Part shown: positions 14,586 to 57,105 of the stretch, one piece after another | Position numbering within the stretch: the stretch's first letter is position 1 | Layout: every line of letters begins with the position of its first letter | Notes under the pieces: generated by a model | Databases searched by the model: none | What the model saw: the letters and a program-made list of their open reading frames with translations, nothing else | Told to the model about the DNA's origin: nothing | Sequence record: SRR22947725_330 | Direction: 5' to 3' (one strand) | Length of the DNA stretch: 57,185 nt | Made by a program: the position numbers and the translations under genes

Positions 14586-14714
14586 CGATCGAAAGATTGT
14601 TGGATTCGCTCAAGTTCGGCCTTGGCCCCGTCGATGAGAACAACGAGCAAGAGTTTCGATCCTGGGCCATGGCGTGTCGTCGGGTTCTATGACAGAGGGG
14701 TTACAGTTGAGAAT

Positions 14715-16196
14715 ATGAGTCAGAACAAGTGGTTCCGACAGGCGGTTGCTGTTGCCGCGGCATGTGCGATGGTGGCATCGGTCAGTTCGACAGGAGCCGT
14801 TGTCTCGGCCGTTGGCCCTGTCGACGCAGGCGGTGAGTTTCACCCGCTGACGCCGGCACGCATTCTCGATACTCGTCCAGAAGAGGGCAAGTACGATGTC
14901 GCCCCGTTGGGTCCGAAGCCAACCGGAGTTGGCAATGTCACGACTGGGGAGTGGTCCTTCGACCCGCTGGGACGTGGTGGGCTGCCTCAACCCGAAGATG
15001 CGGACGATGTCCTCGCGATCGTCGTGACCGTGACCGTGACCGAGCCAACACAGCCGGGTTACCTTGCGGCGTATCCGACAGGCTTTGATTTTGGTGGCGA
15101 CGAGATCTCGGCGCTACTTACCTTTGGCGCCGGCGCCAACGTTCCGAACCTCGCCGTCCTCGGCTTGGGTCCGAACGGCACGCTGACGTTCAACGCGAAT
15201 ACAGTCGCTGCAGGGTCCTACCATCTTGTGGTCGATGTGTTCGGTTGGATCTCAACGTCGACGCACGACAGCGGCGGGGGTCGACTGGAACTCGTGAATC
15301 CTGGACGGATCATGGACACTCGAGCGGTCGGCAACGGAGTCGAGAGCGGATGCAATCCCAATCCTCGGGCGCCAGGACAGTCTCTCGCGGCGGCTGACTC
15401 AGTCGCCCTCCAGATTCGCGGCGCCGCCGCGGTCTGCCCGGCTCAGCCGAGCATCGTGCCCAACGATTCGCGGGTCACCGCCGTTTTGGTGAACCTGGCA
15501 CTTGTCAACAACAACCCGACGAGCCAACCTACCTATGTCACGGCGACGCCTACTAGCGTCCAGACGAACCCAGACAAGACGGCGAACTCGCTTGCCGTCG
15601 CCGGCGGGATTCATGCAAACATGGCGGTGGTGCCCGTCGGCAACGACGGCAAGATTCATCTTTTCAATAACGCTGGCGAGCTCGACCTCGTCGTTGACGT
15701 GCTCGGCTACTTCATTGAGGATGTGGACGCCGACTGGGCAGCGACAAACCGCGGCAGGGTCGTGCCTCTCGAGGCTCCATTCCGGGCCTTCGACACCCGT
15801 GAAACCGCGTTTGGTGATGCGCCGCTCTCACACGGCACGAAAGAGTCTTGGAGCTTCAAGCAGTTCGCTGAATCCGTCACGCTCAACCCGGACGCCGATC
15901 AGCCGGAGGTTGCTCCTGAGCAGCTCGGATTGATTGGCGGCCTCTTCGCCGTTGACCTGCAAAAGACGTATGCCTCTGATGGTGATGGTGTGTCGTCATA
16001 TCTCCAGATGTATCCCGGTGGACTGACGGAGCGACCGCTGAGCGCGAACGTGAACTTCTTCCCCGGCGAAATCGTGCCGAACACCTCATTGATCAAGTAC
16101 GGCACCGTCGAGGCCGACGCATACGTGGTCGATGTCTATAACGCCTACGGGTCGATCGACTACGTGCTCGACGTGTACGCCATCGTCCTTGCTTAA
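14715..16196 (+). CDS. Secreted protein made of three PxRxxDTR-type beta-rich repeats
   Basis: Signal peptide MSQNKWFRQAVAVAAACAMVAS; repeats open with LTPARILDTR, VNPGRIMDTR, EAPFRAFDTR and close with VVDVFGW, VVDVLGY, VLDVYA. TACAGT 7 nt before the ATG. Confidence 0.75.
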   Translation: MSQNKWFRQAVAVAAACAMVASVSSTGAVVSAVGPVDAGGEFHPLTPARILDTRPEEGKYDVAPLGPKPTGVGNVTTGEWSFDPLGRGGLPQPEDADDVLAIVVTVTVTEPTQPGYLAAYPTGFDFGGDEISALLTFGAGANVPNLAVLGLGPNGTLTFNANTVAAGSYHLVVDVFGWISTSTHDSGGGRLELVNPGRIMDTRAVGNGVESGCNPNPRAPGQSLAAADSVALQIRGAAAVCPAQPSIVPNDSRVTAVLVNLALVNNNPTSQPTYVTATPTSVQTNPDKTANSLAVAGGIHANMAVVPVGNDGKIHLFNNAGELDLVVDVLGYFIEDVDADWAATNRGRVVPLEAPFRAFDTRETAFGDAPLSHGTKESWSFKQFAESVTLNPDADQPEVAPEQLGLIGGLFAVDLQKTYASDGDGVSSYLQMYPGGLTERPLSANVNFFPGEIVPNTSLIKYGTVEADAYVVDVYNAYGSIDYVLDVYAIVLA

Positions 16197-16204
16197 CAAC
16201 ACCA

Positions 16205-16240
16205 CCAGCCGGCGAGCACTGGTCGGTCTCGACCGGCTGG
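16205..16240 (+). terminator. GC hairpin after the repeat-protein gene
   Basis: CCAGCCGG...CCGGCTGG stem with inner CGAG/CTCG; no U-tract. Confidence 0.45.
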
Positions 16241-16254
16241 GCTCGTCGAGCCGG

Positions 16255-16383
16255 TACACTGACTCGACCGAATCACCGGGCTGATTCGATCGGCGCCTGA
16301 GGGCCCCGGCCCGGTTCGGAGAACTTCGACGCCGCAATGGTTGCGGCGTTCGTTCGAACTGTTCCACCCTCAGGAGGGTCCCC
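16255..16383 (+). promoter_or_regulatory. ahcY promoter (-10 TACACT) and structured 5' leader; riboswitch candidate
   Basis: TACACT 16255-16260; ACCGGGC/GCCCGGT; CCTGAGGG/CCCTCAGG overlapping SD AGGAGG (16372-16377); GACGCCGCAA/TTGCGGCGTT hairpin. Confidence 0.5.
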
Positions 16384-17865
<1,482 letters not shown>

Positions 17866-18015: not shown

Positions 18016-18690
18016 TCAGCGGCTGAGTCGCGCCCGAAAGAGCTTGACGGCACTGTTGGCTTTGCGTCGGTAGCGCCTCGCGGCCATCCGGAGTGGGTTG
18101 GCCTTGAGGTCGATGACGATGGTGAAACCGTTGCCGACCTTCTTGTCGGGGTCCTCGATGTAGATGACGTGATAGCCGAACGATTCACACATCGCGTGGA
18201 ACGACTGTGAAGTCCACCGCGAGTGATGCCAGTCGGTTGCGACTTTGGTGCTGAGCGGTTCGGAATAGCGGGCCCTGTGCTCGTCGATCGTGGTGAGCGG
18301 CAATCCAAGGTCTGTTGCGGCGGCATCGGGGTGCGGGCAGATGATGAAAATATATCTACGGGCGATCCGCGACCACTCGTCGATGGCGGTCATCGGGTCG
18401 TAGAAGTGTTCGACGACGTGAGAGTTGATCACAAAATCGAGTGATTTGTCAGCGAATGGCAGGCGGTCACCGGTTGACACGACGTCGATGGGCATCACCT
18501 CACCGCACATGTCGATCTGTGATGCCACGTACATGGCCGTCTGTGGGTCGCCGGGAGTGAGTCGATCGACGTTCCACGTGTTGAGGCCGAACGCGTTGTG
18601 CGCTGCACCTCCGATCTCGACTCCGACGAGTCCGTCGAGCAGTTCGTGAGCCAGCGTCGATTCGGGAAACTTGTCCGTCGCATCGGCCAC
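18016..18690 (-). CDS. Class I SAM-dependent methyltransferase-like protein
   Basis: GVEIGG motif I variant, LPFADKSLDFVINSHVVEH; TATACT 6 nt before the GTG. Confidence 0.75.
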   Translation of the reverse strand: MADATDKFPESTLAHELLDGLVGVEIGGAAHNAFGLNTWNVDRLTPGDPQTAMYVASQIDMCGEVMPIDVVSTGDRLPFADKSLDFVINSHVVEHFYDPMTAIDEWSRIARRYIFIICPHPDAAATDLGLPLTTIDEHRARYSEPLSTKVATDWHHSRWTSQSFHAMCESFGYHVIYIEDPDKKVGNGFTIVIDLKANPLRMAARRYRRKANSAVKLFRARLSR

Positions 18691-18750: not shown

Positions 18751-19395
18751 TCAGATTGGCTTCATCGTGAGGCGGGGAAGAAACACTTGAACAAGGGGGC
18801 CGATGCCAAACGCGAACACCGCTGTTCCGATGCCGATTGACCCGCCGAGCGCGATGCCGACACAGAGGACGAGCAACTCGACCGCGGTACGCGCGACGCG
18901 AATGGAAATCTGCCAACTGCCGATCGAGCGTTTGGCAAGGCCAGTCATCAAACCGTCACGCGGCCCAGGTCCGAGGCCGGCACCGATGTAGAAGCCCGAA
19001 CCGATCGCGATCACCGTGACCCCACCCAACATGAGCAGCGTGCGCGTGACGAGGAGGTTGGACTCAGGGATCCACGGCAGGGTGATATCGACGACGATGC
19101 CGATCACGGTCGCGTTGAGCAGGGTGCCGAGCCCTGGTCGTTCACGCAGCGGAATCCAGAGGAGAAGGAGCGCGAGACCGGTGAGGATGACAACGTTGCC
19201 GACCGAAATCCCGGTGATTTCGCTGACTCCGGTGTGAAAGACGTCCCACGGCGCAGCGCCGAGGTCGGCATCGATAATCATCGAGATGCCGAGGCCGAAG
19301 AGTGCCAGCCCGAAAAGGCAACGGACGAGCCGTTCGATGAAGCGGTCGCGAGGAACTCGCAAGGTCGGAGTCGGTGCCGCATTGGTTCCGGCCAT
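18751..19395 (-). CDS. YczE/YyaS/YitT family membrane protein
   Basis: LGAAPWDVFH, PGLGTLLN, LGPGPRDGLM, GIGT motifs. Start 19395 chosen from a TACCGT -10 box (alternative 19509). Confidence 0.85.
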   Translation of the reverse strand: MAGTNAAPTPTLRVPRDRFIERLVRCLFGLALFGLGISMIIDADLGAAPWDVFHTGVSEITGISVGNVVILTGLALLLLWIPLRERPGLGTLLNATVIGIVVDITLPWIPESNLLVTRTLLMLGGVTVIAIGSGFYIGAGLGPGPRDGLMTGLAKRSIGSWQISIRVARTAVELLVLCVGIALGGSIGIGTAVFAFGIGPLVQVFLPRLTMKPI

Positions 19396-19522
19396 CGGGT
19401 GCACGGTATCGAGTGGGTGGACCGCTGGGGCCAGCGGTTTCGGTCGCGCCGATGTGCGCACTGCTTCGTCGACCAGATCGGCACGGGCCGACTCTGTGAC
19501 AGTGCTCATTCATGATGGCAGC

Positions 19523-55843: not shown

Positions 55844-56776
55844 TTATTGGGTGACGGCCTTGTCGGCCGGTGTTGTTTGACGGTAGTAGTCGACCTCTGC
55901 TTCGGCCGGAATTGTGTAGCTGGAGTCGTCGGTGATCTCGCCGTGGAGCCGGCGCTGGTTGAACCAGTCGACGTAGGTCATGGTCGCGAACTCGATGTCG
56001 TCGAGGCCGCGCCAGGGGCCTTGCGGGTAGATCAGTTCCCACTTGTAGAGCCCGTTGAATGACTCGGCCATCGCGTTGTCGTAACTGTCGCCCTTGGACC
56101 CAACCGACGCGACGATGTCGTTGTCAGCAAGCCGCTCGGAGTAGCGAATCGACAAATATTGGACGCCGCGGTCGCTGTGATGGACCAACTGATCGAGGTC
56201 CCGGCCGACGCGTCGCCGGTTCCAGACCGCCATCTCCAACGCGTCGATCGCCAGATCAGACCGCAACGATCGGCTGGCTTGCCAGCCGACGATCATCCGC
56301 GAGTACACGTCGATGATGAACGCGACGTAGACCCAACCCGAGTGCGTCTTCACGTAGGTCAGGTCCGCAACCCAGAGCCGGTCAGGTGCCGGCGCCCGAA
56401 ACTTGCGAGCGACCAGATCGGCGGGCCGGTGCAACCGGTCATCGGCATGGGTGGTGATCGTGAACGCCTTGCCCCGCCCGGCCCCGGAGAGTCCTTCGGA
56501 GCGCATCAACCGCTCGACAGTGCAGCGCGCGACCCGGATCTCTTCACGGTTGAGCTGGGTCCAGATCTTGTCCGCGCCATAGACGAACAAGTTCTCCTCA
56601 AACACCCGGTGCACCTCGACCACGAGTGCGGCGTCGCGCAAGGCTCGTGCTGATGGCGGTCGTTTCTTGGCGGCCCAATACGTGTTCGGGGCAATCCCGC
56701 AGTCGTGCTCGCGGAGCACTTTGCAGATCGGCTCGACCCCGAACTGGTCGCGATGCGCGTCGATGAACGCGATCAC
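55844..56776 (-). CDS. IS3 transposase OrfB (DDE integrase core)
   Basis: [27 protein letters not shown]. Confidence 0.95.
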
Positions 56777-57105
56777 TTCTTGGACTGGCGGTCGAGCTCC
56801 GCCCCGAAGAAAGCCGACGCCGCCTTCAAAATGTCGTTCGCCCGGCGCAGCTCTTTGTTCTCACGCTCGAGCTGTTTCATTCGGGCACGCTCGTCGGTAG
56901 TGATACCGGGACGGGTCCCGGCGTCGGTCTCGGCGCGGCGGACCCACTGACGCAACGTCTCGTGATTGACGCTCAGCTTCTTCGCGATCGACTCGATTGC
57001 TTTCCACTGCGACGGATACTCGTGCTGGTGATCCAGCACCATCCGTACTGCGCGTTCACGGAACTCGTCCGGATACCTACCCGGTCGACGCTTCTTCTCT
57101 GACAT
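56773..57105 (-). CDS. IS3 transposase OrfA (HTH)
   Basis: [47 protein letters not shown] overlap with orfB. Confidence 0.95.

Follow-up and report, generated by a model that had tools for sequence, protein, structure and literature searches.

A conserved bulged hairpin in the ahcY leader of Acidimicrobiales, a candidate for a new SAH-sensing riboswitch

Introduction

The gene ahcY is the classic target of the SAH riboswitch (RF01057). This RNA is an SAH-induced ON switch, by which the build-up of SAH activates the very gene that removes it, and it controls metH and metF too (PMC1950547). Several structural riboswitch classes have been described for SAM (PMC13314739), and in the literature that we searched one SAH-selective riboswitch class only turned up.

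Three further systems are close to the locus described here. The SAM/SAH riboswitch RF01727 is characterised in PMC7367207 as an H-type pseudoknot which holds the Shine-Dalgarno (SD) sequence, is nearly always located 5′ of metK in Rhodobacterales and works as an OFF switch. The SAM-Chlorobi motif occurs in Chlorobi upstream of metK-ahcY and, according to PMC2864571, bound neither SAM nor SAH when it was probed in a preliminary way; a gene context by itself is therefore no proof of a ligand. SahR-type transcription factors, too, respond to SAH by regulating genes of the SAH cycle, ahcY among them (PMC4239095). Here we describe a structured RNA domain in the ahcY leader of Acidimicrobiales, and we compare it with these systems.

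Results

The locus was analysed within a window, i.e. the whole stretch of 57,185 nucleotides from sequence record SRR22947725_330. An ORF on the plus strand, which starts with the ATG at 16384 and ends at 17865, matched the Pfam family AdoHcyase (7e-143) and the model TIGR00936 (626 bits, cut-off 497.6). These matches bear out an earlier sequence-only reading of this DNA, in which the gene had been named ahcY, encoding adenosylhomocysteinase. The ORFs after ahcY (18016-18690 and 18751-19509) are both on the minus strand, and for this reason ahcY is apparently monocistronic. The first of them, which is convergent to ahcY, resembles a methyltransferase only weakly (MftM, E 2e-5, well under the cut-off), and the one that follows it is a YczE-type membrane protein.

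Immediately 5′ of the ahcY promoter, the plus strand carries an ORF of 524 amino acids (14622-16196) which has no match in Pfam or NCBIfam. Its C-terminal end (DVYAIVL...) and its place beside ahcY are conserved within the genus. From the stop codon of this ORF to the -10 box, the plus strand is occupied by a long GC-rich hairpin without a U tract (16204-16255). The expected -35 region overlaps with this hairpin, which may terminate or insulate the upstream transcript. A search for intrinsic terminators on the plus strand between 16000 and 16500 found none. Far from ahcY, an ALIL pseudoknot (RF01497; 83.1 bits, E 1e-19) at 56687-56815 on the minus strand was the sole match of the window to Rfam 15 at gathering score. 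This element serves insertion sequences of the IS3 family as a frameshift signal, so that a transposase may be present at this site.

A sequence check located every box and every pairing which the sequence-only reading had listed for the ahcY leader, including the GACGCCGCAA/TTGCGGCGTT hairpin. Downstream of the -10 promoter box TACACT (16255-16260), the predicted leader covers positions 16267-16383, its start being predicted from the conserved -10 box. Two alternative folds had been proposed. The first of them, fold A, was described as a pairing of ACCGGGC (16275-16281) with GCCCGGT (16309-16315) around a small hairpin. Both helices exist, and both had to be redrawn. The outer helix, P1, comprises nine instead of seven base pairs between ACCGGGCUG (16275-16283) and CGGCCCGGU (16307-16315), of which the outer two pairs covary in relatives. 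The inner hairpin, P2, reads GCGCC-UGAG-GGCCC (16293-16306) and has five pairs, with a C.C mismatch at the second pair. Alignment consensus placed a bulge of 9 nt, AUUCGAUCG (J1/2, 16284-16292), on the 5′ side only. The domain formed by these elements spans about 41 nt of the window (16275-16315).

The second arrangement, fold B, comprises a 5′ hairpin CGAAUCA/UGAUUCG (16269-16288), which is seen in the sequence as well as in the centroid fold and which is mutually exclusive with P1. In addition, CCTGAGGG at 16296-16303 is fully complementary to CCCTCAGG at 16367-16374. The anti-SD segment of fold B, CCUGAGGG, lies inside P2, and its perfect 8-bp pairing is contained in the minimum free energy (MFE) structure. 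The SD sequence itself, AGGAGG at 16372-16377, forms the best anti-SD duplex (-11.8 kcal/mol) found 5′ of the ATG. For the leader, RNAfold returned fold B as the MFE structure, and the aptamer fold lies only 5.3 kcal/mol above it; the region 16197-16400 as a whole folded with -91.9 kcal/mol (z = -2.87 versus shuffles). The MFE structure also contains a composite hairpin at 16312-16361, equivalent to the helix termed P3 below, in which an outer helix pairs 16312-16320 with 16353-16361 and a GC-rich hairpin is inserted at 16327-16351. Its 5′ arm has four nucleotides (CGGU) in common with the 3′ strand of P1. When the aptamer fold was enforced, a local hairpin ACCCU-CAGG-AGGGU at 16366-16379, which includes the SD sequence, was predicted.

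No Rfam family matched this leader. Comparison of positions 16150-16450 with Rfam at E <= 10 yielded no match on the plus strand and three weak matches on the minus strand only; the scan for SAH and SAM families which the sequence-only reading had called for accordingly left the leader without a family on the sense strand. Among 20 diverse members of the motif described below, no relevant Rfam match was obtained at E <= 1. In five motif-carrying genomes (G001, G014, G018, G033 and G084), the RF01057 model reached 18-24 bits at best, compared with a gathering score of 37, and none of these matches was located at the ahcY locus; the SAM-IV family was likewise not found in these five genomes. As matching with the covariance models was tested and failed, the domain belongs neither to RF01057 nor to RF01727. 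Our full-text searches of the literature returned no description of the motif.

As had been suggested in the sequence-only reading, ahcY upstream regions of relatives were collected; the leader proved to be conserved, with covariation. The gene was located by means of the AhcY protein in 39 of 41 related genomes, and the upstream regions were aligned with MAFFT. A single block was conserved far above its flanks. It consists, from 5′ to 3′, of TAnnnT, ACYGGGCUG, a variable stretch of 9-10 nt, a short hairpin, CRGCCCGGU, a GGUUCG...CGAACC hairpin and the SD sequence. Covariance models were built from 25 copies (R1) and 31 copies (R2), and an alignment fitted to the covariance model (A6) comprises 99 members, of which 85 are distinct.

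In this alignment, P1 has the core GGGCUG/CRGCCC, extended by up to three variable outer pairs. J1/2 measures 7-17 nt, with a mode of 9 nt in 49 of the 85 distinct members, and follows the consensus A-Y-N-C-G-A-N-Y-C-G, in which the G and the A are each present in 67 members and the last G in 70. P2 abuts the 3′ strand of P1 without a linker and is composed of five pairs with an N.C mismatch, closed by an NGNN loop. The mismatch at its second pair (U.C, C.C or A.C) occurs in 70 of the 85 members, the remaining 15 having G-C. No variation was seen in CUG, in the basal G-C pair of P2, in the G at the second position of the P2 loop or in CCC; the two G residues preceding CUG in the P1 core are nearly invariant. 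Opposite the U of CUG stands G in 43 members, A in 36 and U in 6. The consensus of P1, 5′ bulge and P2 gave no evidence of a pseudoknot, nor did a duplex scan of J1/2 against downstream sequence in eight members, which returned weak pairings of about -3 to -6 kcal/mol at inconsistent places.

Two distant members (L026 and L042) carry a small extra hairpin within J1/2, CCCGCUGGG and ACCCGUUGGGU, respectively, which, judged from sequence, would turn the fold into a three-way junction. Modular hairpin insertions are frequent in riboswitch aptamers. We also noted that the base which opens the P2 loop (16298 of the window, alignment column 44) is associated with the R of CRGCC (16308, column 54), with the combinations A/A in 31, A/G in 20, U/G in 22, U/A in 5 and U/U in 5 members. 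A tertiary contact between these two bases was considered and judged to be weakly indicated, the association being probably phylogenetic.

Evolutionary conservation of the pairing is evident from several measures. Standard pairs fill 89.7% of the cells of the alignment, compared with 25-54% after sliding the 3′ partners by 1-3 columns. Cells altered on both sides numbered 60 among the 99 aligned relatives, compared with 13.4 +/- 4.7 in shuffles and reached in 0 of 500 of them, figures which establish fold A as a conserved, covarying, aptamer-like structure and which overstate the support because the members are kin. The covariation score was 0.204 versus 0.130, and at most 0.045 with slid partners. 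Full compensatory changes affect four pairs: the two outer P1 pairs (AU/GC/GU/CG/UG/UA and CG/GC/UA/UG/AU) and pairs 3 (GC 75, AU 7, GU 3) and 4 (CG 73, UA 10, UG 2) of P2. The number of pairs with any double change (4 of 14) is not above that of the shuffles (249 of 500); since most of the P1 core never varies, double changes are restricted to these four pairs and covariation is moderate. RNAalifold recovered the P1 core and P2 from an independent MAFFT alignment of 29 diverse members. With the mismatch pair left out, G.U combinations were counted 102 times and A.C combinations 3 times. This asymmetry means that it is the sense RNA which maintains the pairing, and not the DNA or an antisense RNA.

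The distribution of the motif was determined in four genome samples. In the order sample, R1 matched 14 of 151 genomes, and 12 of these 14 matches adjoin ahcY; the two that do not are the weakest (E about 0.006). R2 matched 22 of 151 genomes of the class sample, where all 18 matches within the order lie upstream of ahcY and none of the four in other orders (E 0.005-0.02) adjoins this gene. Nine of 151 genomes were matched by R2 in the phylum sample, three of them in the window's family and already known, the other six not beside ahcY. The family sample was the richest source, with R2 matches in 68 of 151 genomes and 31 of 61 genera and with 57 of 58 new places upstream of ahcY; the exception is a second, weak match in a genome whose other match precedes ahcY. 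Each matched genome of this sample has one match, except G486 and G550 with two each. Within the order, all matches are directly upstream of ahcY save three weak ones, and none of the order, class, phylum and family samples contained the motif beside another gene at a convincing score. Weak matches outside the order (E 0.002-0.04 in the class and phylum samples) are not near ahcY and were taken as false.

A complementary picture was obtained from 80 ahcY loci of many phyla. R2 found an upstream match in seven of the nine loci labelled Acidimicrobiia (Ilumatobacteraceae 3, Acidimicrobiales 2, Microthrixaceae 1, Acidimicrobiia 1) and in none of the 71 loci of other taxa. The AhcY loci closest to that of the window belong to Ilumatobacteraceae (87% and 82% identity) and also to Acidimicrobiales. 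The domain is common to Acidimicrobiales, including Ilumatobacteraceae and Microthrixaceae, and is found only in front of ahcY. In one Acidimicrobiales ahcY locus without the motif (L191, 440-640), TACACT is situated 10 nt before a GTG, which is followed by an ATG; from this spacing, ahcY seems to be leaderless in some relatives.

The -10 box TACACT which the sequence-only reading had pointed out was corroborated by its conservation. A TAnnnT ending 6-24 nt 5′ of the GGCUG core is present in 96 of 99 members, as against about 2% expected from background frequency; an earlier count had given 42 of 43 members. Judged from the conserved box, the domain begins at the 5′ end of the mRNA or no more than a few bases from it, and for the window a transcription start site is predicted near 16266-16268. 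Public RNA data were inspected as well. Part of the stretch is contained in 19 of 23 listed runs, which are available as contigs only, and four metatranscriptome runs were examined. Contigs from relatives span the leader from 16266 or 16296 on, and two extend upstream with unlike sequence. As contigs cannot show starts and as they reach upstream of 16266, they fix no transcription start site.

Pairing with the SD region was examined at the level of the family. In the members, the SD sequence and the ATG follow 24-88 nt after the domain. Of fold B, the 8-bp complement is present and belongs to the MFE structure of the window, and even the closest relatives do not preserve it: an A.C mismatch interrupts the CCUGAGGG/CCCUCAGG anti-SD helix in L001 and L002, and other members lack the helix altogether. 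This helix, as well as the CGAAUCA/UGAUUCG hairpin, is confined to the subclade of the window. The 5′ arm of that hairpin occurs only in the window's close relatives, all of which have the flank ACCGAAUC. In a generic test on 43 members, the aptamer was paired with the 25 nt surrounding the SD sequence, and the best duplex of each member was compared with 300 dinucleotide shuffles; complementarity was no better than that of the shuffles (mean z = -0.07), and two of the 43 members fell below -1.64. Because this test gave no excess, fold B is not a feature of the family. The individual z values were -1.92 for the window (3% of shuffles as good), -2.13 for L052, -0.62 for L001 and -0.25 for L002; the 8-bp helix of the window is only marginally above chance.

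Another helix, P3, connects the domain with the ribosome binding site in much of the family. With its 5′ arm it shares the final 2-4 bases of the P1 3′ strand, and with its 3′ arm it borders on the SD sequence or overlaps with it. A P3 of at least 4 bp is present in 52 of 97 members, compared with 22.5 expected from dinucleotide shuffles. The sequence of the helix is specific to lineages, namely GGUUCG/CGAACC (plus CC/GG of the SD), CCACGA/UCGUGG(AGG), CCGCG/CGCGG(GAG), CUCC/GGAG, CCUGG/CCAGG and CGUCUCGA/UCGAGACG. In the window's own subclade the P3 test gave k = 0, and the general closing helix is absent. The P3 equivalent of the window (16312-16320 with 16353-16361) contains the inserted hairpin, a spacer comes after it, and the 16366-16379 hairpin is able to accommodate the SD sequence in either state. 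RNAfold predictions with the aptamer enforced versus free shifted SD pairing without a consistent direction, the SD being freed in some members and the opposite being obtained in others.

Discussion

The conservation of this domain, its strand-specific pairing and its position leave us highly confident that it is a real conserved cis-regulatory RNA of ahcY. We regard a metabolite-sensing aptamer as the best single reading, because it brings together a strand-specific covarying domain, invariant bases clustered at the junction, a conserved bulge that varies in length, a competing helix extending to the SD sequence, a conserved promoter and the exclusive link to ahcY. That the domain is the aptamer of a previously undescribed riboswitch class, with SAH as its most likely ligand and activation of ahcY translation as its most likely action, is in our estimation an evenly balanced proposition. 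More tentative is the narrower proposal of a second, structurally unrelated SAH-specific class in Acidimicrobiales, in which a hairpin of about 41 nt with a one-sided bulge, placed at the 5′ end of the ahcY mRNA, might switch translation ON by drawing the 3′ strand of P1 away from an SD-proximal helix.

Within this proposal we infer that the domain binds a ligand, that this ligand is SAH, as suggested by the gene context alone, and that binding acts in the ON direction. Without ligand, the 3′ strand of P1 and adjacent bases would pair with sequence at or beside the SD. The helix formed in this state would be P3 in most members and, in the window, P3 together with the CCUGAGGG/CCCUCAGG helix. 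The ligand would stabilise the junction at which the upper end of P1, J1/2 and the lower end of P2 meet; the stabilised junction would keep P1 closed, the 3′ strand of P1 would leave the competing helix, and the ribosome binding site would become free. From the switch that the sequence-only reading had envisaged, this proposal retains the conserved aptamer-like fold A tied to ahcY, the -10 box and the lack of an Rfam match, and the anti-SD helix of fold B is reduced to a trait of one subclade.

Of the other explanations, the one which fares best, unlikely as we consider it, assumes that a protein, be it AhcY or some other regulator, binds to the hairpin and thereby governs how the ahcY mRNA is translated or how stable it is, without any sensing of a small molecule. 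Protein-binding leaders, too, look like a simple hairpin whose bulge is asymmetric and whose helix bases (here GGGCUG/CRGCCC) are invariant, the link to a single gene fits autoregulation, and no pseudoknot or higher-order fold emerged from the scan of eight members. However, no candidate gene for an RNA-binding regulator is conserved beside the locus, where the 524-aa ORF upstream lacks a family match and the genes downstream are convergent.

It is rather improbable that the domain is a riboswitch for a ligand other than SAH, such as adenosine, homocysteine, SAM or NAD+, possibly with OFF logic. As SAH is suggested by gene context only and AhcY produces adenosine and homocysteine, such ligands come into consideration. 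OFF logic would agree with the small overlap of P1 and P3, which amounts to just 2-4 nt in many members and could therefore allow both helices to stack and form together, and with the inconsistent direction of the RNAfold predictions. For a hydrolase that detoxifies, however, feedback by its products or by SAM would be less economical than induction by the toxic substrate, and the known ahcY riboswitch is SAH-induced and ON (PMC1950547).

Quite improbable, in our view, is a constitutive stem-loop which senses nothing and merely blocks 5′-end-dependent decay or fixes the level of translation. Hairpins at the 5′ terminus are known stabilisers of mRNA, and the conserved -10 box, which ends 7-20 nt 5′ of the core, locates the domain at the predicted 5′ end or only a few bases away from it. 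Such a role would need no invariant bases, no conserved mismatch, no conserved bulge sequence and no fixed loop G, and it leaves unexplained why a lineage-variable helix competes with P1 and reaches the SD sequence. The possibility that GGGCTG...CRGCCC and the P2 arms, which are DNA inverted repeats beside the -10 box, form an operator for a transcription factor binding 3′ of the promoter is very improbable, given that the excess of G.U over A.C shows pairing to be maintained on the sense RNA only, that the repeat spacing varies from 7 to 17 nt and tolerates hairpin insertions, and that compensatory changes preserve pairing and not sequence.

If the SAH riboswitch reading is true, a second SAH aptamer, small and of another fold, would represent another RNA route to discriminate SAH from SAM, and it would offer a compact SAH sensor for methyltransferase activity assays. 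It would also provide a riboswitch candidate for Acidimicrobiia, which are abundant, mostly uncultured actinobacteria of water and soil. Even with another ligand or with a protein as partner, the domain would constitute a well-delimited new cis-regulatory RNA family with about 100 members, a covariance model and a clear gene link.

Among the systems described so far, the SAH riboswitch RF01057 is likewise a cis-acting element of the ahcY 5′ leader, and its logic is the one expected here (PMC1950547); its metH and metF contexts contrast with the motif found here, which precedes ahcY only and occurs in Acidimicrobiales only. The two RNAs also differ in architecture. RF01057 folds as a pseudoknot and its model has 78 positions, whereas the present domain is a single hairpin with an asymmetric bulge and 48 model positions. 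RF01727 is also a very small aptamer of a translational leader, and it binds an adenosyl-sulfur metabolite (PMC7367207); in contrast to that pseudoknot in front of metK, the domain reported here precedes ahcY, has no Rfam match and shows no evident pseudoknot. The SAM-Chlorobi motif is, according to PMC2864571, likewise a lineage-restricted structured leader of ahcY operons with a promoter-like sequence just 5′ of it, but it belongs to the metK-ahcY operons of Chlorobi, and the domain of Acidimicrobiales matches no Rfam family. SahR-type regulators, finally, are DNA-binding proteins of Proteobacteria (PMC4239095), whereas the signal described here is strand-specific RNA pairing.
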